From: a virus
Strand: one strand, 5' to 3'
DNA: 64,000 nucleotides
IMG/VR virus record: IMGVR_UViG_3300045988_044010
In this document: positions 4,397-46,658 of the stretch, one piece after another
Numbering within the stretch: the first letter of the stretch is position 1
Layout: every line of letters begins with the position of its first letter
Notes under the pieces: generated by a model
Seen by the model: the letters and a program-made list of their open reading frames with translations, nothing else
The model's database searches: none
Told to the model about the DNA's origin: nothing
Program-made: the position numbers and the translations under genes

Positions 4397-4798
4397 ATGA
4401 AATACTTTACTATAAAAGAATTAACAGAATCTACTACAGCTACAGCTAAGAAATTAGATAATACTCCTACAGAGTAGGCAGAGAAGAATCTAATTACTCT
4501 AGTAGAAAAGGTACTTGATCCACTTAGAGAATTGTATGGTAAACCTATTATAGTTAATTCAGGTTATCGCAGTCCAGAAGTAAATAAAGCAGTTAAAGGA
4601 GCTAAGACAAGTCAACATGTATTAGGAGAGGCTGCTGATATAACAGCAGGTAGCAAAGAAGAGAATAAGAAGTTATTTGAGTTAATCAGAGATAACTTTG
4701 AGTTTGATCAACTTATTAATGAGAATGACTACTCATGGATACATGTATCATATAGAGAAGGAAGACTTAGAAAACAAATATTAAAGCTTGGTAAATAA
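4397..4798 (+). CDS. Peptidase M15-type cell-wall hydrolase (endolysin)
   Basis: The sequence reads ...NSGYRSPEVNKAVKGAKTSQHVLGEAADI..., matching the M15 (VanY / L-Ala-D-Glu peptidase) H..G.A.D signature. ATG 4397 is joined to ORF 4532..4798 through one in-frame TAG. Confidence 0.8.
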
Positions 4799-4800
4799 AG

Positions 4801-7800
4801 ATGGTAAGATTTGTTAATTTTAGAGCAAGTGATATATAGCCCAATCCTGATGAAGTAATGTACTGGGTTGACCTTAATACTGATCCACTTGGTGGTAGTA
4901 TAAAGGTATGGAATGCAGAAGGATATTGGGAGACTATAAAAGTACTTCAAGGAACTCTACCTGAATTTGAAAACAGAATAAAGAAATGGGTAGAACAACA
5001 ATTAAAGAACTTTGATGAGCATCTGAATGAAGAGATACGTCAATTTGACGGTAGGATTGCTATCATAAGTTAGGATATAGAGACATTAAAACTAACTAAA
5101 TAGGATAAACTTATTGCTGGTTCAGGCATAGATATTACTGATAATGTAGTATCATGTGTACTGGATCTAACTTTATATAAGATAGTATCAGAACTGCCTA
5201 CAGAAGATATTGATACTACTAAGATATATCTAGTAGTTGATAGTGAAGGTACTCATGGTAATCTCTATAAAGAGTATATCTATGTAGATGGAGAGTGGGA
5301 ACTGTTGGGCGAATATAAAGCCGATATAGATCTATCTCCTTATCTTACTAAGGTAGAAGCTGCTGATACTTATGCTACTAAACTAGAACTGCAACAAGAA
5401 GTAAATCGTGCAACACAAGCAGAGGTTACTGAGAAGAATAGAGCATTAGCTGCAGAGGAACAACTGTCTAAAGACATTGATGCAGAAAAGGATAGAGCTC
5501 TTATTGCAGAAAGAGATAACTTCAACCGTATTATAAATGAAATTGCACGTGCAGAAGCTGCAGAAAAAGCTAATGCTAAAGCAATAGAAGATGAGGCAAA
5601 GCGTGCTATAGAAATTGAAACAGCTCTTGCTTCAGGAATGGTAGAAGAACAGAACAGAGCAATTGAAGCGGAAGAACAGTTACAAGGTGAAATATGGGCT
5701 GTAGATGCTAAAATATCTGAACAGGGTGGTTCTTTAATTGATGCTATAAATTCTAATACACAAGCTATAGCTGATGAAACTGCTAGAGCTACTCAAGCTG
5801 AAGATAATAATAGGAATCTTATTAATGCAATGGATACAGCTTATAAGGCTGCTGATACTGCAACTAACACTAAATTAGACAATGAGATTACTAGAGCTAA
5901 AGCAGCTGAGAAAACAAATGCAGATGCTATAGTAGTAGAAGCGGATCGTAATGATGCACAAGATACTTTAATCAGCAATCTGCAATCAAGCAAAGTTTCT
6001 ACTGTTAACTTAGTATAGGATCCTGATAATGAGTTACATTATACATTGATGGTAGACTCTACTAATGCTGGTGAAATAAGCATACCTAAGGATAGATTCT
6101 TAAAGCAAGCTTATTACGATCCACAGAAGAAGAGCCTTATTTTTATATTTGTAACTGAGGATGGTGAACAAACTGTACCTGTAGATATTAGCGATCTAGT
6201 AGATACATATACTGCCGGTAATGGTTTAAGTCTAGCGAATAATAAGTTTAGCATTACTATTGATAGTACTTCTGATTCTTACTTAACTGTAGGAGCTAAT
6301 GGAATCAAATTATCTGGTGTAGCAGCAGCTATTAACAAACTAGATACTGACTATAAAGCAGCAGATACTGCAACTCTTAATTCAGCTAAAGCATATACAG
6401 ATACTAAAGCATCTGATATAACTGATGCAGTTACACAACTACAATCAGATATAGAAGCTGAAGAAATCAGAGCTACAGATGCAGAGAATAGATTGGCAGG
6501 ACAAATATTTGCGTTAGACGCTGCGAAACAAGAAAGACTAGTTAGTGGTGAAACCATTAAGACTGTCAATGGTAGTTCATTACTAGGAGCTGGTAACATT
6601 GTTATTGAAGGTGGTAGTAGTGGAGGAATTGATGATGCTCCATCTGATAGTAAAGAATACGTTAGAAAGAATGCAGCATGGTCAGCATTACCTACTAGAT
6701 CTGTAACTCCAGTTGCTGATTCGTTAGTATAGAGAGACGGTTCAGGTAATCTGATAATTAATAAAGGCTCCATTAATTTCAACAATAATATGGAATGGTG
6801 GATGCAGGTTAATTCTGATGGTAACTTCATACTTAACAGTACTGGTAATGCAAATAAGTTCTTATATCATGGAGACGAAGTAGGTACTTTAAAGAATCTT
6901 TATGTTTTGAAAGAAACACTAATAGATACTACATCATTAGATCAATACACATACTATCCTGTAACTATAGAAATATCTTCAGCTTATAATTCTAGAATAG
7001 AAGTTCATTCAGCATTATATCTTTCTGGTACACCAGAATGGTCTACACATGGCAATGGATTTACTACTCATTTTATAGAAGAAGTTTATGGTAGTGGATG
7101 GGGAGCTAATTATTCTACTCACAGAAGAATAATTGATTACCAATATAAATATACTAATAATGTACAACCTATTGGTAAAGTAAGACAGATGGGAAATTCC
7201 TCAGAAGAGGTCATTTGGGTAAGAGGGGGAGCTAAGTATTATTTTGAAACTAGTAGAAACGCTACTCCTATATTACATACCGTTGCTTACACGAATAGTA
7301 ATGATACGGTGTATCCTACAGGAGCTGCTGATATGACTAATGCCGATTATAGTACTCTTAAAAGAACTATGGTTGAAACTTCTGATACGAATGTTTCTGC
7401 TACTGGAGATTCGCTTGTAAAAAGAGATGGTAACGGTAGTATAATAAATATCAGTTATTAGACTACACAAAGAGTAAATGACGATGGAACTATATCTGTT
7501 ATCTGGGTAGACAATGGAGATGGTTGGTTAAGACGAAGAACTTTATCTAGCTTTAAAACACAAATATCAGGTACAGGTCTAGATGCAGATACATTAGATG
7601 GTCAATAGGATACTGCTTATTTAAGATATAGAAGTACTACGACAACGCATGATGATAATACACTATGGGATAAGATAGGTATTAAAGAATATTCTTCAGC
7701 TAATCCAGATCAGCTAGATGCGCCGTTTAATTATGGAGCCGCTATATCATTACCTGCAGGTTCGAGAAGATTTGATATATGGTATTCTGATAACTCGTCA

Positions 7801-9642
7801 ACTAATTCTACTTAGAGAGGAATATTCTATAGAACTGGTTGGAATGTAACTAAAAATCCATGGGTTAGATTTTTAGATGCCAATGATATGAGTGCTACTA
7901 ATACAGCAGACAAAATTCCAGTTAGAGACGCTAACAAACAGATACTAACTAGTGGTTATAAGAAAGAAGGATCTAGTGATTCATACGTACTACTTGGTGG
8001 TGGAGGTCATGTACTGTTGGCAAAAGGAACAACTGGTAATACTATGGTACAGAGAGATGCTGATGGTATTGTATATGGTAAGTATTTTTACACAGAACAA
8101 GAAGATGAAGCAGCTGGTACATCTATATCTTCAGTGTATATAAAGAGTACAGATAAAATTATTAGAAGAGTATCCTTTGCTAACTTTAAATCAGCATTAA
8201 ACATTCCTTCTGCATACACATTACCAACCGCATCTAGTACTACTTTAGGAGGTATCAAGGTAGGAGCAGGATTGTCTATTAGTAATGGAGTATTATCTGC
8301 TAATGGAGGTGGCACAGCTGATTCAGTTGCATGGGCTAACGTAACAGGAAAGCCAACGTGGATTGGAACTACTAAACCAACTTACAGGCTAGACGAGATA
8401 GCTTCATCTACTAATCAAACTGTAGATGCTAGTACTACCCCTGTATCTAGAAAGAAGATAGTTTATGTAGGCAAATCAGGTAATGGATGTATTAGTGCTG
8501 TAGCTTTAGGTATACGTAATGTAAATGGATCATTTGGTCCAGCTGTATTATCGTTAGGAACTAAAGATACGCCATCAGATACAGCAGCTATTGATGACGG
8601 ATGGGTAGATTACCAATTCCAAACTAGTGGTAGAGTTGTATCTAAAGCAGGTACATTTGCTGTCACTTCTGATATTCCTACTTCATTAAAGAATCCTAAC
8701 GCCATTAAGTTTACAGGAGCAGTTACGGGTACTTATGATGGTTCTTCTGCTGTTACTTTGAATATACCAACTATTGCTGGACCAAAAGGCGATACTGGTG
8801 AGAAGGGAGAAAAAGGTGATTAGGGTCCGTAGGGTTTGAAAGGTGACACTGGGGATCAAGGACCTAGAGGATATGCTGGTTCAGATGGAGCTAATGGTAA
8901 ATCGTTAGAGTTTGTATGGAGTGGTTATACTCTTGGTGTAAGACAAGAAGGTACTACATCATATACTTATTCAACTAGTTTACGTGGAGCAACTGGAGCG
9001 AAGGGTGATAAAGGAGATAAGGGTGATACAGGTCCAGCTGGTACTACAACGTGGTCTGGTATTACTGGAAAACCATCATGGATTGGTAGTAGCAAACCAA
9101 CGTATACATGGTCGGAAATCACAAGTAAGCCATCATGGATCGGTTCAAGTAAACCTTCCTATTCATATTCAGAAATATCTGGTACTCCATCTCTTGCTGA
9201 TGTAGCCACATCTGGATCATATAATGATCTAAGTAATAAACCAGTTATTGATACTGCTCTATCTTCTACTAGTACAAATGCAGTTCAGAACAAAGTAATA
9301 TATGAATAGTTAGTAAAGAAGGCTGAGATAGTAGGATATTAGGCAGGTTAGAATGGTTACATAAAGTTTGACAATGGTTTATTAATGCAATGGGGGTATA
9401 AAACAGCAAGTTCTACTGGTACTAATACTACTTATACACCTATAGCTTTTTATAATGCTACATATGTTCCCGTTATTACTTATTATGAACCGGGCAACGG
9501 TATGAATATTGTCACAGGTCTTATTATAAATAAACAGACTAGTTATTTCACGATAAGGAGTAGATATACAGTGGGAGATTCAAACGGTACTGGCGCGGGA
9601 ACCAATGATTTTTATTGGGTAGCCGTTGGTAGATGGAAATAA
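4801..9642 (+). CDS. Large tail fibre protein (1,613 codons): coiled-coil, collagen-like and C-terminal receptor-binding-like domains
   Basis: Seven ORF-track fragments (4858, 5305, 6046, 6790, 7888, 8836, 9385) all lie in frame 1. Every gap I translated holds only TAG. The ORF ends at TAA 9640-9642. A Gly-X-Y run at 8790-8900 stays in register across two TAGs. Confidence 0.85.
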
Positions 9643-10213: not shown

Positions 10214-10744
10214 ATGAAAGAGAAAATAATATTTCTAGCCCAAACGTATGCTCCAAATCCATCGGAGTGTACTTATTGGATTGATTTAAAAGAAGATCCG
10301 ACTGGAGCTGTCATCAAAGTATGGAATGGCGCTACATGGAAACCTATTAGTGGAGACACTGAAGTGGTAGCTATGTTACAGGAAGAGATTAAAAAGAAAG
10401 CTACTAAGGCTACTACTTTATCTGGTTATGGCATTCAAGATGCATATACCAAAGATCAAGTAGATGCAAAAGTAGCATCAGTATACAGAGTAAAAGGATC
10501 GGTTGCTGATTTTGATTCATTACCAAGTACAGCATCAGTTGGTGATGTGTATAACTTGGATGATACAGGAGCTAACTATGTATGTATTACAGCTAGTCCT
10601 GCAGAATGGGATAAATTATCTGAAACTGTAGACTTAACAGGGTGCATTGCATCTGACGTAGTATCTAATGTAGTTTATATGACTCAGGCACAATACGAAG
10701 CATTATCGGTTAAAGATTCCAAAACATTATATTTAATTTACTAA
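10214..10744 (+). CDS. Short fibre-like protein sharing the N-terminal module of the 4801 fibre
   Basis: Intact ORF. Its NPSECTYWIDLKEDPTGAVIKVWNG parallels NPDEVMYWVDLNTDPLGGSIKVWNA in the 4801 gene. Confidence 0.65.
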   Translation: MKEKIIFLAQTYAPNPSECTYWIDLKEDPTGAVIKVWNGATWKPISGDTEVVAMLQEEIKKKATKATTLSGYGIQDAYTKDQVDAKVASVYRVKGSVADFDSLPSTASVGDVYNLDDTGANYVCITASPAEWDKLSETVDLTGCIASDVVSNVVYMTQAQYEALSVKDSKTLYLIY

Positions 10745-10748: not shown

Positions 10749-12017
10749 ATGAAATTACAGAATAATGACATAATAGCAGCTTATCTAGGTGCTTAGACTA
10801 TTTCTGATATTAATTTAGGAGATAACAATGTCTTCTCTAATTACTATGGAGTTAGCTTTCCATTAGAACCTCAGAATACTCTTATGACTAGAATAGGTTA
10901 TATGCCTTGGCATAAGTCATTACCTATTCAATCTAAAATGAAAACATGTACTATTACTTCTGATGGTACTGTTAAATATATCAATGCATCTGATAGAACT
11001 AAGTATGAAGATGGAACTGACAGAGATATGACGCTTAATACTATGGTAGAAATACCTGAATTCTGGTATAAGTGTATGAAGAATGATACAGACGTTTTCC
11101 TTAACTTGTATGTTAATGATCCTAAACTAGCAGACGTGGAACATGTAACTAAATTCTATATTTCAGCATATGAGGCTACTACAGTAGATGATAAGTTGAT
11201 GTCAGTTAATAATGGTTCTACCCCTACAGTATCTATCCCCAGAACTACTATGCAATCTAGAGCTAGAGCAAATGGTAGTGAAAAATGGAATATGTATACT
11301 TATAAAGCACATAGAATACTTACTATTCTTTACTTAGTAGAATACGCATGTACTAATAGTCAAGCAACTTACAATGCTACATTAACTTCAGAAGGATATA
11401 GACAAGGCGGACTTGGCGCAGGTGTAACTGGTGCAGGTCAACCAGTTAAGAACGGTTCTAATATATACTCAATTGTTCCATGTGGCACCACAGATTCTTT
11501 AGGTAATTCTACGGGTGTGGTTTCGTTTGCTTGGAACAATACTAATGCAGAAGGTGCTACTACATCTACATTCAATTATAATGTACCTAGTTATAGAGGT
11601 GTTGAGAATCCATTTGGACACTTATGGAAGAATGTAATAGATGCATTAGTACACTTTAACTCTACTGATAATTGTAATGATGTAATGTTGAATAGTAATC
11701 TCGCTACATTTGGTTCAACCACAATAGGTGATTATACATTACAAGGGCAGACAACAATTAGAGAAGGATATAAAAAGCAGTTGATATATAACTCTGCCTT
11801 TGATTTATTCCCATCTAAAGACGAAGCATTTGGAGGAAATACTACAACATATTGGTGTGATTATAATTACAGCAATAATAGTACATCAGACAGAACTATC
11901 CTTTTGGGTGGTAGCGCGGCTCACGGCGGTATTGCTGGGTTGCTCCATGTGGGTTCTAACAATGGGCTTGGTCATTCCTATGCTTCTGTCGGTACTCGGT
12001 TAATCTATATACCGTAA
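10749..12017 (+). CDS. DGR target protein (fibre/receptor-binding protein with C-terminal variable region)
   Basis: ATG 10749 is joined to ORF 10884..12017 through one TAG. The C-terminus (...YWCDYNYSNN...LLGGSAAHGGIAGLLHVGSNNGLGHSYASVGTRLIY) contains the VR that matches the downstream TR. Confidence 0.85.
11901..11999 (+). repeat. DGR variable region (VR)
   Basis: It aligns base for base with 12059-12157. In the alignment, 23 of 24 differences fall where the TR has A. Confidence 0.9.
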
Positions 12018-12058
12018 AAATATAGAATTTTATTGAAAAATAATAGGTTGTTCTCTTG

Positions 12059-12157
12059 CATTTAGGTAGTAACACGACTAACAGCAGTAATGCTAGGTTA
12101 CTCAATGTGAATTCTAACAATGAGCTTAGTAATTCCAATGCTAATGTCAGTACACTG
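12059..12157 (+). repeat. DGR template repeat (TR)
   Basis: A-rich, AAY-rich copy of the VR lying 41 nt after the target stop codon. ORF-track entry 12056..12247 is just its translation. Confidence 0.9.
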
Positions 12158-12280
12158 ATCCCCAAAACAGAAAAAATATTTAAAGAAGCACTGTTAGAGA
12201 AGACCTTACCTCTTGGTAAAAAACGACATTTTAAAACACTGTATTAGTAGCGCAAGCGAAAATTCGGTATGGGATTTCAG

Positions 12281-13303
12281 ATGAAAAGATATAATAATTT
12301 ATTTGAACAGATTGTTAGCTTAGACAATCTACGTCTAGCTGAAAAGAAAGCTAGAAAAAACAAGACTCACAGACCAGAAGTTATTGAGTTCGATAAGAAT
12401 AAAGAACAGTTACTGTTAGAGTTATAGAAAATGTTAATTGATGGTACATATGTGACATCTCCGTATTATATCTATAAGATATATGAACCAAAAGAAAGAG
12501 AAATCTTTAGGTTGCCATATTATCCAGATAGAATAGTACACCACGCAATAATGAATATATTAGAACCTATATGGGTTTCAACCTTCGTGAAAGGTACATA
12601 TAGTTGCATTAAGAAACGTGGTATTCATAAAGCTATGAGAGATGTAAAAGAATCATTAAAGGACATACAAGGAACTCAGTATTGTCTAAAGTTAGATATC
12701 AGAAAGTTCTATCCTTCAATTGATAATGATATACTCAAACAAGTAATAAGAAGAAAGATAAAGGACGTTAAGTTATTAAATCTATTAGATAGTATAATAG
12801 ACTCTGCTGAAGGAGTACCTATTGGAAATTACTTATCACAATTCTTTGCAAACTTATATTTAACTTATCTAGATCACTATATTAAGGAAGTTCAGAAAGT
12901 TAAACACTATTTCAGATATGCAGATGATATTGTAATATTACATAGTGATAAGAAATATCTTAGATATCTATATGAAGATATTAAGGATTATTTAGAGAAT
13001 AAACTTAATTTACATTTCAAAGATAACTGGCAGATATTTAAAGTAGATTCTAGAGGAATAGATTTTGTAGGATACAGATTGTTTCATACACATATACTTC
13101 TTAGAAAGAGAATCAAACAAAACTTCTGCAGAAAGATAACAAAACTAAATAAAAAAGATATTGATAAGGATGATTATAAACAAAAAATATGTAGTTATAT
13201 AGGTTGGATTAAACATTGTAATGGAAGGAATTTGTTCAGTAAAATGTTGAAATATAAAGAGCTATTAGAATACGTTAACATCCATAGACCAAGTAAAACA
13301 TAA
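12281..13303 (+). CDS. DGR-type reverse transcriptase (1 in-frame TAG at 12425-12427)
   Basis: N-terminus MKRYNNLFEQIVSLDNLRLAEKKARKNK...; then YYPDRIVHHAIMN; PIGNYLSQFFANLYL (the DGR-type xGNxxSQ motif); and FRYADDIVIL (the YxDD catalytic box). Confidence 0.9.
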
Positions 13304-18017: not shown

Positions 18018-18463
18018 CACACAGAAAATCTTACACAATAAGTGACTTCTATTAGTTCTACCTATCTAATATTGAAAGAGATACTGTATATGATATTGAT
18101 TATAAAGTGTACAGACAAATAATAGAAGACTATTTTAAATTTATAGCAGACTAGGTTATTGAACATAGTAGAGAATTTAAACTACCATGCAGATTGGGTA
18201 ATCTAAGTATAGTGAAACGTAGACCTAAGAACTTTGATAATAAGAGTCTAAGGATTGATTATCATGAAAGTGCTATACAAGGTAAAGCAGTATACTTTAT
18301 CAACGAACATTCCAATTTTTTTAAATTCAGATTTTTGTGGTCAAAAAAAGACAGTCTTCTAAAAAATAAAACCAGATATTAGTTTGTTGCCACCAGAGCA
18401 AACAAGAGAAGATTAGCACAAATAATAAAAAATAGAGAGCATGATTACGTGGAGATTCGCTGA
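18014..18463 (+). CDS. Hypothetical basic protein
   Basis: ATG 18014 overlaps the upstream TGA (ATGA) and joins ORF 18194..18382 through TAGs. It ends at TGA 18461-18463. Confidence 0.55.
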
Positions 18464-19196
18464 TGTTAACAAATTACCTGAGGAATCTGGTATTTATATG
18501 ATATTGAATATATTAAACAATCATAAATACGTAGGTAGCACCAATAACTTTAAGAGAAGACTAACCAGACATCGCGGAGAATTACGTAAGGATAAACATC
18601 ATTCCACTTACTTGTAGAGGGCGTATAATAAATATGGTGAAGACAAATTCATAATATATATACTAGAGAGATGTTAGCCTATAAAAGATACTTTGATATA
18701 TTTAGAGTAGAAGTATTTGGATTTAAATCCAGAATATAATATCGAGAAAGTAGCAGATAGAAGATTTACTAAATAGGCAAAGATAAAAACAAATAAGGTA
18801 AAGCATCCAATACAACAATATAGTTTAGACGGTAATTTTATCAGAGAATTTGACAGTATAACACAGGCAGCCAAATGGTGTGGAAATAAAAACAAACACC
18901 CTCAAATATCTTTGTGTTGTTAGGGTAAATTGATCCAAGCGTGCGGGTATCTATGGAAATATAAGAATGATGATAGAAGCATTATGCAAGTAACAAAACA
19001 ACCTTGTGATAAAGGAATAAAAGTTGATCAATTAGACATAAACGGGAACTATATTAAAACTTATGATAATATGAGAATAGCTGCAGAATCAAATGGATCA
19101 ATACAAAATAGATCTGCTATAAATAGAGTATGTAGAGGATAGAAGAAAACAGCTTTTGGGTATAAGTGGAGATACCATACAAATAATATATTATGA
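18441..19196 (+). CDS. Free-standing GIY-YIG homing endonuclease (5 in-frame TAG)
   Basis: The N-terminal half reads SGIYMILNILNNHKYVGSTNNFKRRLTRHRGELRKDKHHSTYL-Q-RAYNKYGEDKF. Two C-terminal repeats follow the pattern Q.D.NG..I..(F/Y)D....AA......I...C.G (NUMOD-like). Confidence 0.85.
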
Positions 19197-20104
19197 TAGA
19201 CAATAATATGATATCATCTAAAGCAGTTATAGCCAAAATAATTGCTGATTTAGATTTAAAAGAAGATGAAGTTAAAATAACCGATATAAGAGAATATATT
19301 GGTGAGGCTATGGAAAAGATAGGTGCTATATAGCAACTAGAACATAAAGTAGAAAATATTCCTGTAATAGGTTACTAGGCAAAGTTGCCATGTGATCTAT
19401 ACAGATTAAATTAGGTAGCATTTTCATTTGAGAATAGTTGTGGTTGGTTACCCATGAGAAAGGTTACCAACTCTTTTGGTGTTTATACCAAATGTGATAA
19501 ATGCGATCCTAATATGATAATTGGAGATAACGCTCTTATACCTTTGGTAAAGAATTTATACAACCTTATAGATGATAGGTCTGCATTAGATATCATTAAC
19601 TCTGATCCTAACGTTAAAAAGACATTAAGTGCTTTAGTAAATCAATATACTATACCTAGTGTAAATGGTAGACTTATAGTAGGTAATCCAGCATCATTAA
19701 ACGGATCATTACAATACTCTACTAAACCGGGGTATATTACAGTTAATGTTCCTTGTGGTTGGGTTAAGATATCTTATCATGCTATCATTACTGATGAAGA
19801 TAGTATGCCTATGATACCTGACAATCCTTCTTATTTCGAAGCTATATTTTGGTATGTAGCTATGAAGTTATCTTATCCTAAGTATCTAAAAGGACAACTG
19901 AATCAAAACATATACTATGATATGAAGAACTCATGGAACTTCTATCGTAGACAGGCTTACGCAGAAGCTATGATGCCGGGTGTAGATGAAATAGAATCTA
20001 TCAAGAATGATTGGCATAAGTTATATACAGAGTTTGATGATCATGATACGTTCTTTGCTACTACTGGAGATGAACAAATAATATATAATTAGAATAGATT
20101 ATGA
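19193..20104 (+). CDS. Virion/tail protein (function not established)
   Basis: ATG 19193 is joined to ORF 19454..20092 through TAGs. Read-through of TAG 20090-20092 ends at TGA 20102-20104, giving an ATGA overlap with the next gene. Confidence 0.6.
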
Positions 20105-23100
20105 CAAATACTTTACAAACTAACAGTTTCGTAGGTGGTATGAATATGGATATTGATATTCATGCAATACCTGAGAATCAGTATAGATATGCTGAGAACA
20201 TCAGAATCATTACTGATACTGAAGGTACTAGTGGAGTATTGCAAAATATTTAGAATATTCGCCCAGTAGATGGTGGCGGATTTATATCAGATGATGAAAC
20301 TGTATTATATGCTGTTACTGTAGATAAGTATGCTGTTATTCTTACTGTAGATAGTAAAAACATAAATAGAGTATATAGAGTATCTGATTATAATAATCTA
20401 CCTCTAAAGAACACTGTAATAATAAAAGGTAAACTATAGTATGGTAAGTCTAATAGGGTTAAAATAGTAGCTAACTATGAGGCTGAGAATAATATTAAGA
20501 TATACATAACAGATGGAAATACTCCTATTAGAGTATTAAACATTATGGATAATAAGTATGTATATGAACCGGGTGTTACCAATGACTTGTTAGATAGTGA
20601 AGGCAATATTAAAGATCTAAGTATATTAGATTTAACTCCGAGTTCATTACTATCTCCTCCAAAAATAACAGAACTAGGCTCTGGTAATTTATCATCTGGT
20701 ATTGTACAATATGTATACCAATTATTTAATGTTAGAGGATCTAACACTATTATGTCTCCTTGTAGTGGTTTAGTGCATTTAACAGACAGTAATACTTCTA
20801 GTAGCCTAAATGAATATCATGGGTTAGATAAAGAGGTATCTACAGGTAAGTCTGTTAAAATGACTATTGATCTGGTAGATAAAACTACAGGAATAAACTA
20901 TAATAGTTATTATACTAATTGTAGGATATTTAGGATATTTTATAATGATAACACGGCATTACCAACTATTGATGTTATTGCTGAAATTAAATCATCTAGT
21001 ACAGCTACTAGTATTGAGTATGAAGATTTAGGTGGAACTCCAATTAATACTATTACTTTAGAAGAATTAAATTCTTTAACAAACAATTCATTTGTAGCTT
21101 CTACTATTGAGAAGAAAGATAATAGATTATTTGCTGCTGGTATTAAAGAAAATACTTGGAGAACAGATTATGATGCTAGAGCTTATAGATGTACTAAGGA
21201 AGGGAGACTTATTCTTAAATCTGCTAGCGGGTAGAATGATATTGATGTAATGCTACCAGAGTATGGTTCGCAAGCATGGAAGAATATATTATCAGATATA
21301 GATCCTGAACATGATTGCATCAATCCCTATAACTCTGTAAAGGGATAGCCAACTGCTAACGATAATCTACAATATAGTAATAAGGTTGAAAGAGGTGCTA
21401 GAATATTAGGAGGTAGTGGTATAAATGTAAGCTATAGATTTGTTTATACTGAGCTTACTATGGATACCATGTAGTCTATGAATACATCTGCAACAGAAGG
21501 TCATGACTATGCTAAGATTCAAGTACTCCCTCAGACTACATCTTCTATGACATTCTATTTCTTAGATGGACTGAAGGATACATCAATAAATCGTAGTATT
21601 CCAGAGTATTCTAGATAGATGAATTATGCAGATCCATATATTGATGCTAATTTCAGAGGATATTAGAGAGATGAAATATATAGATTTGGTATTGTATTCT
21701 ATAACAATAAGAGTATTCCATCTAATGTTAGTTGGATTGGAGATATTAGAATGCCTAACGCTCATGAGTACCCAACCTTCTTTGCAGGAGAAAATCTTAT
21801 TGGTAAAGCATTAGGATTACAATTTGAAGTATCTAATGTACCAGAAGAAGCAGTGGCGTACGAAATAGTAAGGTGTAGACGTACTATTGATGATAGAACT
21901 GTATTGATGCAAGGAGTTATATCAGAGATAACCAACTATCCATATAAGTATATCAATAAAGGTGATGAACCAGATAATAGTTATAGACCTAGAATACCGC
22001 TTGGATACACAGATCAGGACATACCTGTTAAGTATGCAAAAGCTTATCCTTATGGAGAACTAGGGGCTGAGCAATCCTCTATGTTCTATAATGATAGAGT
22101 TACAAAATACTATGTTACATTCATAAGCCCAGAACTAGATATAACAGGTGAAAGCTTGGTAGGCAAACTTAAGAATGCTCATGCTGAATTACTATATTAT
22201 TTACACCCAATAGCTAGTAAAGGATACTGGTATAAAGCTACTGATAGTTCTAATGTATTTTCTAATAAATACTTTATAACTCCTAATAATACAAATTGGG
22301 GATTTTCTTCTGACAGAGTAACAGAATCAAAGCTCATAGGATGTTATAATAGTAGCATTAATGGATTTGTAATAGCATCTGAAGAATTTGGTACACATTA
22401 GACTGTACACTCTATATCAAACTTAATAGGCAAAAGATACATATTACATAATACTGCAATATCTGAAAATAGGTTAACTGTAGATATTAATAATAACTCT
22501 ATATTTCCACCAATTATGGCTGGAGGAAATATTATGGCAGAAAAGATGCAGTACTATAGAACTATTGGTGATATTAATTATCTAAACTTAGGTCATATAC
22601 ACAACAGTGATGGCGATAATAATGGTGCACGTAGAGCAGGACCATTTGGTTATTGCGCAGTATTGAATGGAGATTTTACTAAGATACCAAAGTTTCATAG
22701 AGTGGATGGTGTTATACAGGCTAACTACAACATAACAAGCGTAATAGGTTCTCAAGATATATTCTTGAATAAGGCTTGGTTTGAGTTACCAGTAGTAAAC
22801 ATAAAACTTAGTAATATACCATATGGTGGGAATAGTTATATAGCTAGAACTAACTCTACATATATTAGTACTAACTCATTTACTACAGTAGGACCTAGTG
22901 GTGGTCAATCTTTAGTATATGGTGGCGATACTTTTATTGGTGTTCATGATCATAGGACTGCCAACGCATTCCCAGATCCGGGTGACGGAGATTATAGAGC
23001 ATCATTAATTAGCTGTACAGATTATATTCCAGTAGAAAGTAGTATTAATCTAGCATTGCAATATGGTGAAACTACTAGTCGTAGTTGTGAAGGTATGGAT

Positions 23101-24267
23101 GATTATACTAACCCATATTTAGGTACTACTATAGATGGGGGTACGTTGGGTAATTATAATAAATAGACTAAACCATACTATGCATATAATGATGCATATT
23201 CAGTTCAAGGTGATGCAAAGAAGTATGTTACAGAATCAGCTTATGCAATAACTAATGCTAATAATATAAATAGAATTGTATATTCACAAGCTAAGATTAA
23301 TAATGAAGTAACGGATAGTTGGTTACAGTTTAAGTTTGCAGATTACTTAGATGTAGACAATCAGTATGGTAAGATAACCAATCTTAAGTCATTTAATGAC
23401 AAACTGTTCTTCTGGCAAGATAGCGCATTTGGAGTAGCTTCTGTAAATGATAGATCACTTATTACTGATAACAATATTAGTGAACTTACTTTAGGTACTG
23501 GTGGTATATTGACAAGATACGATTATATTACTACTGGTAATGGGTCATCTGTTATAAACGACAATAGTATAACTAACTCTGACTTCGCATTATATTGGCA
23601 TGATAGAGATAAAAATGAGTTATGCCAATTCTCTGATACTATACATAAGTTGTCTAAAGAGAAAGGAGTATAGACTTATTTGAATGCAAATCCTAACTTT
23701 GTAGTTCATGATTCATTCTATGATAATGAATTCAACGAAGTTAGATTCTGTTTCAATACTAAGACATTAGTATATAATGAATATACCCAAAGTTTTACTT
23801 CATTTTATACTGAAAATCCTACTAGTCACTTGAAATTTTCTGACAAGTTGTTATATATCAAAGACAATAAAGTGATGCAAACCGAAGATCGTGCGTTAAA
23901 TGTAATGGAGTGTAAGATATAGTATATTATTAATAAAGATATACTATATACTAAGACATTTGACAATGTATTCTTTAGCGGTCAGTTTAGAGATATAAAG
24001 AATATGCTTACTGATGCTACATTTAGAACTACAGATCAAGTAGGTACTATTACTTAGGATTATGTAAATGGTGGTTATGCTATAGATCATAGAGAAAATA
24101 CATATAGATTTGCTATAGGCAGAGAATAGAATAGTGATGATACATTATCATATCCGGGCAGATTAAGAGGTAAGTACTTAATATGTGATCTTACTTTGAA
24201 TTGTGGAGAACAACACAACTTTACTCTCCCTAATATTAATACAACATATAGATACTCATTAGTATAA
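20101..24267 (+). CDS. Large tail protein (1,388 codons; nozzle/tube-like, assignment tentative)
   Basis: Four track ORFs (20545, 21751, 22516, 23680) all lie in frame 1. All gaps were hand-translated and hold only TAG. TAA 24265-24267 overlaps the next ATG. Confidence 0.7.
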
Positions 24268-26457: not shown

Positions 26458-28416
26458 ATGGCAGCAAATATGTACGATCAAGCCGCATAGGCTTAGTTTA
26501 TTAATACTTATGCTCCAATTAATTTTGGAGAATTGTTTAGAATTGGTGCAGCGCAGAAAGAAGAAATGGATAGAGCTGCCCAACAATTTGGAGCATAGTT
26601 ATAGAAGTTTGGAGAATTTAGATCACCGTCTGCTGTAGATACTCAAAGATATTATGATCTTACTACTGGTAGACAGGATATACAAGATGCTATAAATCAA
26701 ATGGTATCCAACCCAGATGCTTTGAAGGATGCTTCCTTTAGATCTAGCTTACAGTCGTTAATTAATAATGTAGATTATTCTTCATTAAGTAAGCTAAAAC
26801 AGAGTGCTGAAAATCTGGATGCTAGACAGAAGATGATAGCTCAGATGAGGGCTGCTGGTAAATATAATTAGAATTGGGATGATATAAATATAGGAGAATG
26901 GAATACTTTAGAAGGTGGTATTATGACAGATCTTGCTCCTATAGAGTATTTAACAGCTAACGCACTGAGTAACGCATACTTTGATAACTTAAAACCCAGT
27001 ACACTTAGTCCTGTATATAAAGATGGAGTAAAATATCAAAGACAAGGCATTACCTATGATACTTTGAAAGGTATAGCAGACGCTAGATTCAATGACTTAA
27101 TCAGAACTCCACAAGGTCAAAAGTATTATGAAGATGCATTAAGATCTGCTAACGGTAATGAAGATATAGCTAGAGAAGCATTTACTACCATGATAGCTGA
27201 TTCTCAGAGAGATAGAATAGTAGAACAAGAAACTGTAGATCCATATTGGTTAGCTCAAGCTAAACATTCAATGACAAGATCAGGTAGTACTGAGATAGTT
27301 AGACCTCAACCTACAAGACTTGATTTTCTTAATGATACCATGTATAAGTCTGTTAAGAATAAGGTAGGAGCTAGATTAGATACTGGTTATAGGGATTACA
27401 TACAAAGTCTTATCACTAAATACCCTAATACCAAAATAGCAGAAGATGCTAAGAAGGGATTAGCAAATATAGATAATATGACTGACAAAATGGTACAGTT
27501 AGGAGAAATGGCTAATTTATATGCTAAGAGATATGAAGCTACTGGTAGTGATCAAGATTTTATCAATTACAATACAGCTTTTAATATGGCAAGAGACTAT
27601 CAAAATAGATTACTACAACAAGGAAATAAATATGTATTAAGAAATGAGTTTCAAAATGTTGCTGGATTTTCTCCAATATCTGTATCTACTAATAAAGAAT
27701 TTAATACAGAGAAATATTTATCTGGTATAAATTCAGCATTAGATGTTATTAAAGGTAAAATAGGTATTACTAAGGATGATGAGTTATTAACTGCAGTAGG
27801 AGGAAGACCATCTACAGTGGTAAATGATAATGGTACTACTAACGAAATATTTAACTTTGATTCTAGTAATGGTTTCTTAATGCCTGAAACTGTATTCAAT
27901 ATAGCAGCAGATGTGAAACCTAGAGAAATTAAAAGAGCTGCTGGTACATTTAGAAGTGGAGACTTCCCTTTGAAAGAATTAGTAGAAGGCGGGAAGCTTA
28001 AGGATGTACAATTCAAACCAGATAATGGAGTTATTAAAATAGGAGATAATTTTGCTTTATCTGGAAAAATAAGAATACCCAAGGATGAAATAACTAGGTA
28101 TATCAGTACCGGCATATTCTCATTACCTAGAGGAAAGCAATACGAAACTACCAACTTCCCAACTACAGTGTAGAGCATTAGATCATCTATAGAAAATTTA
28201 TTTGGTGGTAGAAAGGTAACTGAGAAAGTAGGAGAAGACGGAAAAGAATTCTATGAAATTGAAAGTTATAAAGTATTACCTAAGGAAGATATATCCTCAG
28301 AATATTGGCAAAGAGTAAATCAATCTTGGCAAGGAGGAAAATCAGGGCTTGGCGGAGCTTCGTAGGCAAAAGATACTTATATGGATTCAGCAGAACAATT
28401 ATTATCAGGAGTATAA
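26458..28416 (+). CDS. Virion (ejection/cargo-type) protein
   Basis: ATG 26458 is joined to ORF 26923..28173 (frame 1). Read-through of TAG 28171 ends at TAA 28414-28416. Confidence 0.65.
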
Positions 28417-28421
28417 TTAAT

Positions 28422-31400
28422 ATGGCAAAACAAAAAATATATGATCCTAGTTTGATCAGTAGTGTAAGACAAAGAAGTCGTGATTATAGTAACTATCTAT
28501 CTCCCAAAGCGGATTTAGATAGTTATGTTCATACTATGTCAAATATTCCTACATAGGATAGTGCGCCAGATTCATTTGGTGTTTCAGATTATTTGTCTAA
28601 TGCATTCTATGATTGGAATCTTACTAGAAATGAAACTAATAAAGATACTGCTTTAGGTGAGTATGTCTTTCTACAAAAAGACTATGATATACTAACAGGA
28701 GCTCAATAGTACTTAGAAGGGGTAAAGAATGTTCTTTAGTTACGCAAAGCTATGGATACGGATCCTAATGCTAACACTCCAGAAAATAAACAGTTACTAA
28801 GAGAAGAATCTATCAAAGTATAGAACAATAAAGTTAATTATGACAAATTATTAGCTAAAGACTTTAATGATCAAGCTGTTCGTGATAATATATTTCCTGA
28901 AAGATTTGCTGGTAGACCTATAGACTTACAGATAGAGATCATACAAACTGTACTAGGTGATGGTGAAATAGATAGACAAGGTGTAATAGCTAGAAGAGAC
29001 GATGCTTTAAAGAAAGCTGAGAAATATAAAAAATTTGCAGAATATTGGCAAAGTAAAATGACATCTCAATATTATAGTGATAAGAAGAATTCTCCCGGTA
29101 TGGATCTAACGGATATAGACACGTATCTGTATAAACTACCGGGTCTTTTAGGTTCATCTGCTTCTAGCGCTGGCTCCTAGTTAATAGGTACTCTTGGTGC
29201 TATGTTTAGTACAAGAGGAGCAGGTGGTGTTATGGGTACTTTAGGCTCATTGACTGCGTTTGTAACAGGAAATGTGTACGCAAGAGATCAAGAATCTAAA
29301 GCTGAAGTATATCAAAACTATAAGTAGAATGTAATGAATTCTGCTAAAAAAGATGGTATAGACAAATAGGTACTTAAAGATGCTAAATCTCAAATGCAAG
29401 AAATGGGTTATACACAAGAACAAATAGATAATGATGATTTTGTGTATGAACAAATATTGTCTAATAAAGTAAAGGTAAATAACAATTCTTTAAACCGTAT
29501 AAGACTTAATAAAATGGATGGTTTAAAGTCTCTTTATACAGACAATATGGCTTTATCTGGAAGTGATATAGTTCAGACAGTACTAGAAGTAACTCCATTG
29601 GGTCCTATAGCTAAAAAAGTAAGAGGATTATCGTCTTTAAAAAAACTTGCTAACAGCAAATATGGTAAAACAGCTTAGGTAATTGCTAGTAAAACTGGAA
29701 ATCTTAAACAACAGTTAGCAGATAGAATTGACGATGTTGTAGCATTTGGCATAGAGAGTATAGACAAATTACCTAGACTTACTAGAAGAAAGGCAATAAA
29801 AGACATAGCTGGTAGAATTGTAATAACATCGGCTTTAGAAGGAGCAGAGGAAGGAGTTCAGTATATAAAAGGTCAAAGATATATAGATGGAGATTTTGAG
29901 TCTGATCCTAATCTGATCAGTAGCTACGTACGTAATTTAGGTACTGGCGCTAGATCTGTATTTGCTGCTATTACTCCATGGGATCCAGTATATTCAGATG
30001 ACTAGGAGTTTATGGAGAACTTTAAAGGTGGTGCTCTATTAGGCGGTTTGATGACTTCTGTAATAGGTACTGCAACTAGTATTAAACCTTTAAATGATCA
30101 GATATCTGGTGATAGATTCTTAGCTGCTTTATATGCAGATAGAGAGGCATAGAAAGATCAAGTTCGTAAGAACATACTATATGGTTCTAAGATAAGAGAA
30201 GGTAAATGGAATACTGTTGAAACAGCGTTTGATAATCTTGTTAACTCTAAAATAGATGGTATAGATGTAGCTGAAATCTAGGAAGAACAGAAAAGAGCTA
30301 GATAGATGTATAATATATTTACCTCTAATAGAACTGTAGCACAAGCTCAACAGTTAGACATAGATCCAAGAACCGAAGATTATGATATATTTGTAGCTTT
30401 AAAAGATCACCACGATCAGCAAGTAAGAGATGCTAGAGCTACTGCTACTGAACACAGAAGTGAAGCTGATAATTTACTGTATAGTCCTCAAGTATAGGAA
30501 TACATTGAGAAACTTAATATAAAAGATATAGATCAAGTATCTACTATGAGAAGCGCTATAGCAGCTAAAATTCAACTTGATACTATGTTCCAGTTATATA
30601 ACGAGTTTGAAAATAAACAAAAGACTAAACTAGAGTAGATACAAAAACATACTGGTACTAAAACATCAAAAGCAGATGTAGTACAGTTTGCTGGAATGCT
30701 TAACAAAGATATTAAATCATTCTAGGAACAGTATGAGAATCTGAAAAAACAGGTTACAGCTCTGGGTATCAAGGAAGAAGATTTAGAGGTTCCATCATTG
30801 CATCAAGATTTAAAAGAAGCTTATGAGAAAGTTATAGCTTCTGAATTAGATCTTAGACGAGCTGAAATGGAACAAACTATTATGGAATCCACAGATAAAG
30901 AAGCCATATAGGCTAAGATAAATAAGTGGAAAGATGTAGAGGATGCTAGTAATAAGTTTATGTAGCGTCTGGATGACTTATACTCAGGTAAAACAGAAAA
31001 GCAGAATGAACAAGATTCTGAAGATGTCAAACCTGAAGTGTATGAGCAATCACCAGAACCAGTACCTTCTACTATAGAGGATGAGGTTAAAGAACCCACT
31101 GATATTTCTGATAAAAGAAAATAGATAGTTTAGAACAGAGAATAGTATTTTACTCAGGAAAGAGATTCTAGAGGAAGTAATAAATTTGTTTTAAATCCAG
31201 ACAATACATTTGGTGATGCCTATAAAAATGCTAATATAAAACTTCAGCAGTCATATAAATTATTATTCCCAAATACAAAAAACTATTCTGACAATGCTGC
31301 ACAATCTAGGTTAGCATCTTCTAATCGTCATGGTGAAGTAGCTGATGCTTGGGAAGAGGTGTATAATCTTCGTAATCAATTAGAAGAAGAAGTAGGAGAA

Positions 31401-34400
31401 AATGGAGCAACACCTAAAGCAGAAGAATTAGCCAAAGCGTTAACTCAAAAATCTAATCAATTAATAGATAAAGCTAAGGAATCAGTAGAAATGTGGGAAG
31501 CATATAGTGATTTTATAAGCTCTGGAGAATACTATATTCATCAGCAATTAGAGAGAATTAAGGATAAACAACATAAATTAACTGAACAACAGAATGATGT
31601 AACTCCTACTAAAGTTCAAGAAGCTCCGAGTACTATTCCAGTACAAGATAAAACAAAGACAGAGCCAGCCCAAGTTGAAGATATGCCCACATTAGGTTCT
31701 ATACTGAGAGGTTTGATTAGTGAAGAAGATGCTAAAGTGATAGACTAGGCAGTAGAACCAGAAGTACCAACAGAACAAGTGACAGTACCTATAGAAGAAC
31801 CAATAACTGATAGTGATAACGATAAGGTGGCTCCTTTAACATATGATCAACAATTAGATCCATATTCTCATGAATTAAACTACCGTTTAAGTAGAATTAC
31901 ACAAGACAAAGATGGTAATTGGACTGTAGTAACTTATAATAAATTCCAAGGTATGGAAGAATACCTTAATAATAAGGAATTTTCAGAAATAAGCGCAGCA
32001 CCAGATTTTGTATCTGAAGTTACTAAAAACGGAGTACACTTTGAAGTACGACCATATACTGATGAAAATGGAGTTACGTCTGATGCTATATATGCAATAT
32101 TTAAATATAAAGATAAAGAATATGTAGCTTCTGTTAGAACAGAGAAAGGTTTAGCAGCTAAAAGAGGTGGTAGATTTAACAGATTACCTTATGAGCAACA
32201 ATAGTATATTAAGGAGAATTTGCAAAATCTCAGAAACAAAATACTTGAATTGAACAAACAAGTAAAACTTGATGCAGATTTATAGATAGTTCCAACATTT
32301 ATAAGAACTACTTCAGGTAGTATTGTGAATGAAGTAAATGCTGATGGAACCCCTAAGAATAGAAATATAATTGACTCTGCTTGGTAGAAAGTAAAGGATC
32401 CGTATTAGATTAATCCAAGTAATACTGAGATGGGTATTAGCACTGGACCTAAAGGTAAATCTATTATCCGTCTTAAAGATAGAGTATTATCATATAATGG
32501 TAAGTCTATGGGTAAACCATTCTGGATTATAAAAGCTCCTAATTCAGAAGGTGCAATGATAGATAAACCAATTCAGCTTAATTACAAGTACTTTAAAGAC
32601 CAACCTAAAGTAGCTGATCTAATATTAGATTTAGTAACCAGTAATGATCAATTTTACACAGATGCTAATGGAGTACAAACTTCTATTAATCCAAAATAGC
32701 TGTTGCACTTTATAGTTAACTTTGGTTCACATACTGCTACTAATCCTGAAGACACTAGATTAAATAATGAACAAATTCAATAGAGACTTAAAAAACAATT
32801 CTATATTGATGATAATAATAATGTAGTAATTGGTACTACTACATACAGTATAAGTGATCTATTAACTGACAAGAATATAAGAGAGCAAGCCAAACAGTAC
32901 ATAATGGACAATTTCCATTATGCTATTGATGAAGATGGTCTTAATAAAAATTGGTTAGGTGGAGATTTACAGAATGAAAACAGGGATCCTCACTTTGAAT
33001 CATTGCACTCTTTTTTCAAGAACAGCAATGTAGATAAATTGGTTATTGTTCCCGGAGAAATAGAATTTACTCCTAAAGATTTTGGTATAGAATATTAGGA
33101 TGGTAAGAGAGTTGTATCAAAAACTAATCCAAATGGTATAAGCGTATTAGGCTGGTATATCAAACAAGGTATACTTATGACTGATATTGCTGATACTTTA
33201 CAAGATGCTAACATATATGTAGATGATGTTACTATCCAAAGTAAGTCATAGAGGTCTGAACAGCAACAGGCTCAGCAACATATCAGTGAGGCTGTAGAAA
33301 GGGACTTTAGAAAAGAAAGTATCAGTTATACTGATGAGCAAGGTAATCAATAGAAACTTGATCTTGGTGAAATCTATAAGATATTAGATGGAAAGAAACG
33401 TGGTCCTAATATGACTGTAGAAGATTCTGTTAAAGACGGAATATGGTATAATGCTACAGAAAAGATGGATGTAGATCAAGCTAAACAGTGGATAGAAAAA
33501 ACTCTTGGCATTACTCCAGAAATAACCAATTATGTTATAGATGTTACGGAAGCAGGTCAAAGTGTAGTAGGTAGAGTAACTGTAGATTCTATTAAATTGT
33601 ATAATGATGCTCCAAAAGGAGTAGAATTTCATGAGGCTTGGCATAGAGTATCTCAGCTATGCATAGATGAAAAACATAGAAGAAAGATATATGATAGATA
33701 TAAGAAGAAGAGCAAGTCAAATCTCTCTGATGCGGCTATAGATGAAATCTTAGCAGAACAGTTCAGAGAATTTATGTTAAATGATGCTGCTAAATATGAT
33801 TTTGATACAAAGAATTGGTTTAGACGTATATTGAACTTTATTAAACTATGGGCTAGAACTGGTCAATATGCTTTAGCTAAAATATATGCAGACATTAATA
33901 GAGGTAAATATTACGGTATAAAACCTAATGAGGCTAATGTAGAAAGATTTAAATCAATATACAGTGACGAAGGTCCAAACTTTGAAGTAAATGGTCACCA
34001 ATTTAAAGCCATTACTAAGACTAAATAGTTTGATGATATAGTAAAAAGTCTCACTTATGCTTTCTTCCAATGTTCTTTTGTAGAAGGTAAATCTATTGAT
34101 TATACTGATATTAATCCAAAAGATTATAGTTTTGAAAGACTTAAATTAATAGTAGAAGCTTAGAAAAACAAGTTTCCTTCTGAAGCTCTTACTGAAATAT
34201 ATGACAACTTTGATAATATATTTGCTCCAGCTATAGCCTCTAAACTTAAATCATTAAATATAAGAACTATAGATAATGATAATGTTACAGCTAAAGAAGA
34301 GGGTGAAGAAGGAATAGATATAGGACAGCATACAGTAGAAGGGATGAATATATCTATTAAAGACAACGCCCCTGCTGAAGTTAAATTCTTCTTCTAGACT

Positions 34401-41918: not shown

Positions 41919-41930
41919 TAACCAGATAAT

Positions 41931-46157: not shown

Positions 46158-46658
46158 TTATATGTCATCACCAAATTCCATATAACTATAATAGTCTTCT
46201 TCTGGTATTTCAGCTTCTATAGACTCACCAAATCTATAGTGATTATAAAACAAACGCTCTTCTAATTCTGGAACTGGCACGTTGTTCCAAAACCTGTTTA
46301 TTTCTAATGCTGTTTTCAAATTATAAGTTTTACCATTTATACGAAGCCTATCAATATCTTTTTTATACTTAGGATTACTAAAACAATAGACAGTATAATG
46401 TTTTTTCTTAATAGTTATATAGTGAGTATTATAGATAGTATCTAACTGTCTAAACTTAAGAAATCTGTTTAAAGATTCCTTAGTGTTTACACTACTATCA
46501 TAAACAAAAAAGACCTTATCTTCTAAATAAGGTCTATTCTTATCACTAGTAAACGCATTAACAAAACCACTTTCTACTGTTAAATCTTCCCAAGTAATGT
46601 TATCGTTGCATAACGGAGCTATATATATACTTACATCATTCAAGTTCTTCAGTTCCAT
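46158..46658 (-). CDS. Hypothetical protein
   Basis: Intact standard-code ORF with a TAA stop. Confidence 0.7.
   Translation of the reverse strand: MELKNLNDVSIYIAPLCNDNITWEDLTVESGFVNAFTSDKNRPYLEDKVFFVYDSSVNTKESLNRFLKFRQLDTIYNTHYITIKKKHYTVYCFSNPKYKKDIDRLRINGKTYNLKTALEINRFWNNVPVPELEERLFYNHYRFGESIEAEIPEEDYYSYMEFGDDI

Follow-up and report, generated by a model that had tools for sequence, protein, structure and literature searches.

Evidence for an active, Avd-less diversity-generating retroelement in a TAG-recoded crAss-like phage

The 64,000-nt stretch of viral DNA from IMG/VR record IMGVR_UViG_3300045988_044010 (the window) carries a diversity-generating retroelement (DGR) at positions 10749-13303. 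Overall, with a probability of about 0.9, it appears to be an active DGR without Avd, consisting of a target gene with a variable repeat (VR), a template repeat (TR), a structured spacer RNA, and a reverse transcriptase (RT), placed in a crAss-like phage that has recoded TAG, with the tail-fibre module on one side and the lysis module on the other. DGRs of this architecture in crAss-like phages, amber codons in their RT genes, and late-gene recoding are already published, and the closest genomes are annotated accordingly. As a DGR, the element adds little, since the avd-less order target-VR-TR-RT on crAss-like tail-fibre genes is known; what is added in this study is strain-level evidence of activity, corrected boundaries, a caveat on recoding, and an Avd-free template RNA that would tie the Rfam motif RT-17 to a verified DGR. 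The principal components are the following.

10749..12017, + strand: target gene, 422 aa, with a variable C-terminus; in-frame TAG at 10794-10796, read as Gln
11901..11999, + strand: VR, encoding target residues 385-417 of 422
12059..12157, + strand: TR, same sequence among strains; adenine-mutagenised template positions 12071-12144
12281..13303, + strand: DGR RT, 340 aa; in-frame TAG at 12425-12427

VR and TR align over 99 nt without gaps and differ at 24 positions, 23 of which lie on TR adenines; the same coordinates and counts had been given in the first-pass annotation, which was made from this sequence by itself. The TR has 34 adenines, so that 23 of them are changed in the VR, and the chance of placing at least 23 of 24 mismatches on these 34 adenines is 3e-13 (hypergeometric). 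The sole non-A difference, also seen earlier as lying 2 nt from the 3' end, is a T>G at repeat position 98 of 99, and nothing is shared between the two copies beyond either repeat end. Ten AAY codons contain 20 of the 34 adenines, and the earlier statement that the adenines sit mostly in such codons is broadly right; none of the TR codons can mutate into a stop. A second VR was not found on either strand of the window with the whole TR and 40-nt sub-windows of it as queries.

Activity was assessed with public assemblies instead of reads, that is, by comparison between samples. A search with an exact TR-specific pattern gave 26 loci in IMG/VR and 29 in metagenomes. Within the TR lineage of the window, whose flanks are 91-96% identical, six of the seven sequences have the same TR, while the VR varies at 21 of the 34 TR-A columns and at 4 of the 65 other columns. 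Three loci (L030, L031, and L032; samples SRR9333225, SRR18807585, and SRR18807607) share the TR of the window exactly and differ from it in the VR at 16, 12, and 12 positions, respectively, all of them TR-A positions. The density of VR mismatches in these three is 12-16%, compared with about 0.8% in the flanks (about 99.2% identical), a comparison limited by upstream indels to a collinear block of 2.7-5.8 kb. The same holds for the protein: P0130, a member of the 90%-identity cluster of the target, equals the target of the window at all 389 residues outside the VR and differs at 12 of the 33 inside, while P0123 differs at 1 of 344 outside and 13 of 33 inside. The TR is thus invariant among strains, and the last ~33 codons of the target are rewritten at TR-adenine positions only. 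Hypervariability confined to these positions, for which the first-pass annotation had proposed read mapping as a check, is seen across assemblies, and on this variation the DGR is evidently active.

A pooled mutation spectrum was obtained from 49 distinct VRs over 11 TR variants. Adenines of AAY codons read A in 38%, G in 26%, C in 19%, and T in 17% of the pooled VRs, and non-A positions differ in 8 of 2,639 cells (0.3%). The 90%-identity protein cluster of the target has 2,469 member sequences. This cluster (P0001) also lists the unrelated 176-aa Phage_tail_C protein encoded upstream (10214-10744), as members P0121, P0124, and P0127, probably as a side-effect of clustering fused or fragmentary gene calls; therefore, the figure of 2,469 slightly overstates the number of target variants.

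Several TR adenines are nearly always G in the VRs. Most of these changes turn Ser, Arg, or Glu codons into Gly, and selection for scaffold glycines can explain them; positions 25, 28, and 70 are shown to be copied, since A is occasionally retained there. Two further sites are silent (TTA>TTG). At repeat position 42 (window 11942; TR 12100), 44 of the 49 VRs have G, 3 have A, and 2 have T, an excess of G with P about 2e-18 when measured against the A:G ratio of comparable sites, and position 6 (window 11906; TR 12064) reads G in 14 of 14 VRs of the window lineage. Selection on the protein does not explain G at these two positions, the change being silent. Codon usage was rejected as a cause of the always-G sites, TTA being the preferred Leu codon of the phage (424 TTA and 117 TTG), and so was dinucleotide context on the 5' or 3' side, since AAY adenines in the same contexts are fully variable. 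It is possible that position 42 reflects a nucleotide-level constraint on the VR or a site-specific bias of the RT.

The differences had been read earlier as the signature of adenine-specific mutagenesis. This stands for the demonstrably mutagenised tract, repeat positions 13-86 (VR 11913-11986), which includes every hypervariable adenine, and does not stand for the last two differences. Positions 87-99 (VR 11987-11999, 13 nt) form a putative 3' boundary with fixed VR/TR differences, like an initiation of mutagenic homing (IMH) site. All 49 VRs have G at position 91, and A stands at position 94 in 45 of 45. At position 96, 44 of 45 VRs have T and none has A, although ACA>ACT is silent; if A were retained at 38%, its complete absence would have P about 5e-10. 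At position 98, VR differs from TR in all cassettes. The A>T at 96, the T>G at 98, and the constant G at 91 recur in every related cassette, including those of the Buchavirus genomes cr60_1 and cr52_1. Therefore, the copied tract ends between repeat positions 87 and 95, and the differences at 96 and 98 are fixed boundary differences, analogous to those between IMH and IMH*, not products of mutagenesis. Unlike the GC-rich IMH of Bordetella phage BPP-1, this boundary is short and AT-rich, and the gap between VR and TR is only 59 nt. Just 3' of the VR lies a candidate target-site hairpin.

12004-12010 / 12020-12026, + strand: 7-bp AT-rich inverted repeat TCTATAT/ATATAGA, spanning the target stop codon

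This inverted repeat is kept in cr60_1, cr52_1, and cr109_1, with one compensatory change in cr52_1, where the outer pair T-A is replaced by C-G; like the 3' boundary of the VR, it bears no likeness to the GC-rich elements of BPP-1. A terminator scan gave no terminator-like site, and promoter-like matches were at background level.

The target matches the PHROG family phrog_5302 'tail protein' (E = 9.5e-76) and has no Pfam match. Of 1.84 billion cluster representatives searched, 1,648 stand for clusters related to it, and in many of these the ~400-aa module lies at the C-terminal end of a far longer protein (up to about 1,590 aa). AlphaFold2, given 45 diverse sequences, yielded a model with a mean predicted local distance difference test score (pLDDT) of 93.2 and a predicted template modelling score (pTM) of 0.92. 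Against the PDB, only chains of TaqVP are matched at E <= 0.001 (5vf4, E = 1.4e-8, probability 1.0, template modelling (TM) score about 0.5). The next matches are Mtd (1yu0-1yu4, E = 8e-3 to 4e-2) and TvpA (2y3c, E = 0.23, not significant); all the top-ranked PDB matches are DGR variable proteins. Among viral models, the target resembles 'tail fiber' and 'tail collar fiber' proteins of crAss phages. As modelled, then, the target has the C-type lectin (CLec) fold of variable proteins, in agreement with the CLec-like C-terminus expected earlier.

The gene is the last in a run of fibre genes, as already stated in the first-pass annotation. Upstream of it are a DUF4376/fibre-assembly-like protein, the Phage_tail_C protein, and the following fibre gene, while holin-like and spanin-like lysis genes follow the RT.

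4795-9642: collagen-like-repeat fibre, 1,615 aa, upstream of the target

Taken together, fold and gene position suggest that diversification would switch tropism. The DGR could instead be active on a protein that does not bind a receptor, serving for example to evade a host defence that recognises a virion protein, or to bind mucus or glycans. Such a role would suit the lack of any Pfam domain or experiment that assigns a function, the varied and mostly unknown ligands of the CLec-fold DGR targets that cellular genomes encode, and the position of the target as a last fibre-cluster gene of only 422 aa with no obvious shaft. It is nevertheless improbable, given the match to a PHROG 'tail protein' family, the structural matches to crAss fibre proteins and to Mtd, which is the receptor-binding protein of BPP-1, the tail-tip and fibre-assembly-like domains of the upstream neighbours, and the homologous ~400-aa modules at the C-termini of long proteins, as is usual for receptor-binding tips.

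A gene for a GIY-YIG/NUMOD1 homing endonuclease with in-frame TAGs (18429-19196, + strand) lies among the structural genes, just upstream of the CrAss_Ring_1 gene, and relatives carry GIY-YIG or HNH genes at varying places of the same structural module.

The nearest annotated genomes are Buchavirus cr60_1, cr52_1, and cr109_1 (Suoliviridae), with 72-75.5% nucleotide identity over the region. The records of cr60_1 and cr52_1 describe a 'tail protein; similar to sulfatase, major tropism determinant' followed by a 'Reverse transcriptase'. Downstream of the DGR, window proteins match CrAss_Ring_1 (E = 2e-118) and CrAss_Ring_2 (E = 2e-80). By these sequence matches, the phage is a crAss-like member of the Suoliviridae near Buchavirus.

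The in-frame TAGs of the target and RT frames had been omitted from the first-pass annotation. Reading open reading frames (ORFs) with the standard code fragments the region, and after a comparison of stop-codon models it was replaced by TAG read-through: when TAG is no longer counted as a stop, the ORFs add up to 26.0 instead of 16.6 thousand residues. In-frame TAG occurs 137 times per 12,305 codons in the late ORFs of the + strand (1-46079; structural, lysis, and DGR genes) and 0 times per 2,535 codons in the minus-strand block (46158-63833). Read-through opens a frame of 4,544 codons with 49 TAGs (28284-41918, + strand), flanked by long frames at 20089-24267 and 41922-46079. TAG-to-Gln recoding of late genes is established in Suoliviridae, with metaproteomic support (PMC10136315), and amber codons inside RT genes were previously reported for Zeta crAss-like phages (PMC12386605). 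Homologues of 422 aa have Q at the TAG position of the target, and the TAG of the RT aligns with Q in cr60_1 and cr52_1; both TAGs, at target residue 16 and RT residue 49 (340-aa numbering), are retained in L030 and L031. The annotated RT coding sequences of relatives contain 5-6 TAG codons. Target and RT are intact because the phage reads TAG as sense; under the standard code, both are broken. Within the otherwise densely coding minus-strand block, ~61000-63000 contains no long ORF in either code and could be a regulatory or origin region.

An alternative is that the DGR is a relic, with an RT reduced to a pseudogene by the TAG at 12425 and a VR/TR pattern left over from past activity. With the standard code, the RT does divide into ORFs of 52 and 290 aa. 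Incomplete cassettes also occur among relatives; many Alpha crAss genomes hold fragments (PMC7290462), and cr109_1 has neither TR nor RT. In this last genome (L003, NC_055892.1; 5953-7450), the target gene, a VR-like 3' end, the hairpin after the stop, and the sequence AGGTTGTTC of the left arm of the P0 helix described below are kept, while TR, spacer RNA, and RT are lost and the holin gene comes directly after; cr109_1 is, as judged from its sequence, a natural DGR-loss variant with a frozen VR. For the window itself a relic is very improbable, slightly more so than a target without a receptor. The frequency of TAG as a sense codon in the late ORFs, the very long frame opened by read-through, the metaproteomic support in the family, the retention of the RT TAG in close strains, and the TAG-rich RT genes of relatives all speak for an expressed enzyme. 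Moreover, all catalytic motifs of the RT are intact, and strains about 99% identical already carry completely different VRs.

The RT matches Pfam RVT_1 (E = 6e-17) and phrog_1423 (E = 2e-126). Its best match among solved structures is 8ub7 chain A (E = 4e-52, residues 3-319 of 328), the sequence of which is 100% identical to BPP-1 brt; the retron and group II intron RTs in the PDB follow at about 1e-18, more than 30 orders of magnitude worse. The [I/V/L]GxxxSQ signature is present as IGNYLSQ and the catalytic YADD is intact, and the DGR type assigned to the RT from these two motifs in the first-pass annotation is borne out by the Brt match. In DGR RTs the motif is [I/V/L]GxxxSQ and in intron RTs QGxxxSP, and Arg74 and Ile181 of Brt promote adenine mutagenesis (bioRxiv 10.1101/2020.04.29.068544); the equivalents of both residues are conserved here. 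By sequence, therefore, the RT is of the type of BPP-1 Brt. The start codon conserved among relatives is the ATG at 12281; the ATG at 12269 used by some gene callers is not found in them. With TAG read through, 12044-13303 (+ strand) is one frame of 419 codons that covers TR, spacer, and RT in the same reading frame as the VR; this is probably a coincidence, because relatives have no upstream start and the spacer is constrained as RNA.

An ordinary diverged duplication, with a C-terminus that varies by recombination and positive selection next to an unrelated group II intron or retron enzyme, might be read from records of relatives that call the RT 'Intron reverse transcriptase' or 'retron-type' and from the often fast evolution of phage receptor-binding tips by other means, and it can be dismissed for practical purposes, since selection and recombination cannot yield the adenine bias and the near-constancy of non-A cells across 49 VRs, the RT is far closer to Brt and has the SQ rather than the SP form of the motif, and Rfam gives no match to group II intron or retron RNA families at E <= 1, only to RT-n motifs.

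Avd is found in most DGRs, not in all, and is not strictly defining. In the window, no ORF lies in the VR-TR gap and none of 26 smaller proteins (64 kb) has an Avd-type Pfam match, so that the word 'complete' used in the first-pass annotation is apt for the target-VR-TR-RT architecture known in crAss-like phages and does not extend to avd. The same avd-less order has been described for crAssphage LMMB (Carjivirus) and RT lineage 3 (PMC7290462) and for most Zeta crAss-like phages (PMC12386605), and it is found in cr60_1 and cr52_1, which are 72-77% identical to the window. These crAss-like DGRs and that of the window also have in common a tail-fibre-type target with a CLec C-terminus, an RT with GxxxSQ, and a VR of ~100 nt encoding the last ~33-35 residues. 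The window differs from the crAss-like relatives in a distinct TR lineage and in a 10-residue insertion near the N-terminus of the target, which bears the TAG. In a limited literature search, no paper was found on the Buchavirus-type DGR itself, on its population-level turnover, or on its spacer RNA.

The same architecture is present in four Suoliviridae genera, a Carjivirus, and a Methanosarcinales virus. In the latter (L037, BK063673.1, Caudoviricetes sp. vir525, host Methanosarcinales; 549-2999), the RT is 44% identical to that of the window, and the target-TR-RT layout is accompanied by a VR/TR pair with A-specific differences (16 at A and 2 elsewhere) and by a spacer core of the hairpin-AAAA / UAGUA...GAA type. 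Since this cassette belongs to a virus of a methanogenic archaeon, the DGR lineage spans bacterial and archaeal viruses.

The RNA around the TR is predicted to contain the following elements.

12046..12056, + strand: P0 left arm GGTT g TTCTCT, directly 5' of the TR; strand of a helix that brackets the TR
12158..12186, + strand: A-rich linker, predicted to be unstructured, where BPP-1 has an Avd-binding stem-loop
12187..12195, + strand: candidate primer strand AGCACTGTT, ending before the P0 right arm; proposed from its position and the BPP-1 architecture
12196..12205, + strand: P0 right arm AGAGAA GACC, just upstream of P1; pairs with 12046-12056
12206-12219, + strand: P1 hairpin TTACC-TCTT-GGTAA, with an adenosine run at 12220-12223; the stem covaries
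12238-12244 / 12262-12268, + strand: P2 stem ACTGTAT/ATTCGGT, enclosing TAGTA, the P3 mini-hairpin GC-GCAA-GC, and GAAA

With the two P0 arms paired, the TR would form a closed loop. Counted in one fixed register, all six base pairs of the P0 core form in five of six lineages, and five of them form in cr53. The core sequences change from lineage to lineage (UUCUCU/AGAGAA, UUCCUC/GAGGGA, UUCUCC/GGAGAA, AUGUCA/UGACAU, and CAGUCG/GGGCUG), with at least two Watson-Crick pair types in every column; arms of the same lineage form 5.83 of 6 pairs on average, compared with 3.5 of 6 for arms swapped across lineages. cr52_1 has both a G>A upstream of the TR and, about 150 nt away, the matching C>U. P1 behaves alike, its variable part being ACC/GGT, GCC/GGC, GGC/GCC, or GTC/GGC and paired in all lineages, and the arms of P2 also change between lineages with pairing retained. 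P0, P1, and P2 form in unconstrained minimum free energy (MFE) and centroid folds. When RNAalifold was run on ten diverse spacers aligned plainly with MAFFT, P1 was the only element found; P2, P3, and P0 needed anchored counting in a fixed register. RNAalifold on nine close sequences had paired the 3' end of the TR with the region of the RT start codon, with few compensatory pairs and in four lineages only; this pairing was dropped for P0, which has far stronger covariation and a precedent in BPP-1.

P2/P3 is a candidate RT-binding stem and the core of an element like Rfam RT-17 (RF03020). The RT-n motifs were defined by proximity to RT genes, and only RT-10 was placed in a DGR, that of BPP-1; for RT-17, RT-18, and RT-14, no function was given beyond speculation on a DGR or a retron (Weinberg et al. 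2017, PMC5737381). RT-17 matches the window at 12202-12284 over the full model (35.4 bits, E = 2e-5), and RT-18 and RT-14 match the spacer more weakly. With these three motifs the window shares a place immediately upstream of the RT gene, GACCUU-hairpin-AAAA, and a stem enclosing U(A/G)GUAG ... CGAA. It differs from the Rfam RT-17 model in that here a verified TR precedes the motif and its RT follows, and in that the model has no P0 partner upstream of the TR. Among relatives, L005 passes the gathering score with 40.8 bits, while L001 (37.2), L033 (33.7), L034 (32.9), and L036 (30.5) fail; cr60_1, cr53_1, cr55_1, and a Carjivirus have matches just below the gathering score at the same place.

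The comparison with BPP-1 (mtd-avd-TR-brt) extends from adenine-specific VR/TR differences, a CLec target, and an RT homologous over its full length to the order of RNA elements. In the BPP-1 spacer, an Avd-binding stem-loop is followed by a primer strand that pairs with the 3' end of the TR, 2 nt, a strand of the cPRT Stop duplex, a short stem-loop, A-minor adenosines, a single-stranded 'Thumb Ring', and a bRT-binding stem with interior loops (bioRxiv 10.1101/2023.10.23.563531). From the primer strand onward, the window appears to have the same order: P0, P1, the A-run, a linker of 14 nt between the A-run and P2, and P2/P3. P0 may correspond to the cPRT Stop duplex, which is likewise formed by sequences upstream and downstream of the TR, and P1 with its A-run to the stem-loop and A-minor adenosines. 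The putative cis elements for self-primed reverse transcription (stop duplex, stem-loop with adenosines, and RT-binding stem) are thus all present. In the window, however, RT-17 replaces RT-10 as the Rfam match, target and RT depend on TAG read-through, avd is absent, and an unstructured A-rich linker takes the place of the Avd-binding stem-loop. The 40 nt from repeat position 96 to the primer candidate, about 50% A, have an MFE of 0.0 kcal/mol and less structure than shuffled sequences, and an unpaired A-rich linker is likewise predicted in four related lineages. The replacement of the stem-loop by such a linker is coherent, because there is no avd gene. In the cryo-electron microscopy study of the bRT-Avd-RNA complex (8ub7 series), the authors surveyed Avd-containing DGRs only (bioRxiv 10.1101/2023.10.23.563531).

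Within the primer candidate, ACTG (12190-12193) can pair with CAGT of the TR (12148-12151), and it lies 2 nt before the right arm of P0, as the primer does in BPP-1. Priming at this site would leave repeat positions 90 and above uncopied, and so would explain the fixed differences at 91, 96, and 98; the candidate is consistent with the fact that positions 91, 94, 96, and 98 never behave as mutagenised. A direct repeat flanks the A-rich linker (12153-12157 and 12189-12193), as ACTG...ACTG in the window and cr60_1 and as GCTG...GCTG in cr52_1, and both copies could pair with the CAGT of the TR.

Several points weigh against an active, Avd-less DGR that diversifies a receptor-binding protein. BPP-1 Brt cannot work without Avd, and no avd was found in the window; how the RT would be positioned on its RNA without Avd is proposed by analogy. 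The primer strand at 12187-12195 may serve as such by analogy too, without support from covariation. The folding energy of the 251-nt RNA is no better than that of shuffled sequences (z = +0.5), and the RNA model therefore rests on covariation; the RT-17 score of the window is below the gathering score of 40.4 bits. The tRNA search found no tRNA of any kind, and hence no suppressor, in the window, which would also suit a relic. Variation between assemblies dates the activity only to the divergence of strains that are about 99% identical, and the receptor-binding role of the target is suggested by fold and gene position.

A proposed course of events for the active, Avd-less DGR can be described as follows. 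The late transcript at ~12040-12290 would fold such that P0 closes the TR into a loop, followed by the P1 hairpin with its A-run, the single-stranded linker, and the RT-17-like P2/P3 stem, to which the RT would bind. The RT would prime itself near the 3' end of the TR, copy the TR with misincorporation at adenines, and be stopped by P0. The cDNA would then replace the VR, and up to about 1e11-1e17 tip variants of the receptor-binding protein could result, by which the phage may adapt to changing host surfaces. Since the RT can be made only with TAG read-through, diversification probably takes place only late in infection. A more specific scheme, held tentatively and at appreciably less than even odds, suggests an RNA-only variant of the DGR gated to the late phase, in which RT-17 and the TR-bracketing helix would be the whole scaffold without Avd, and in which a nucleotide-level constraint or an RT bias would force G at silent sites.

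For annotation, caution is advised in such phages, as gene callers and DGR finders that use the standard code would split RT and target at TAG and could miss the element or call it defective. With at least 49 VRs that arose independently on unchanged TRs and a single cluster of ~2,500 protein variants, the element is a natural experiment, and the VR data set may be used to derive the mutation spectrum in vivo and to gauge selection on the receptor-binding tip of a phage in the human gut. The compact, covarying, Avd-free template RNA makes it testable how Avd-less DGRs position and stop their RT, and such an architecture would be useful for engineering small mutagenesis tools based on DGRs.

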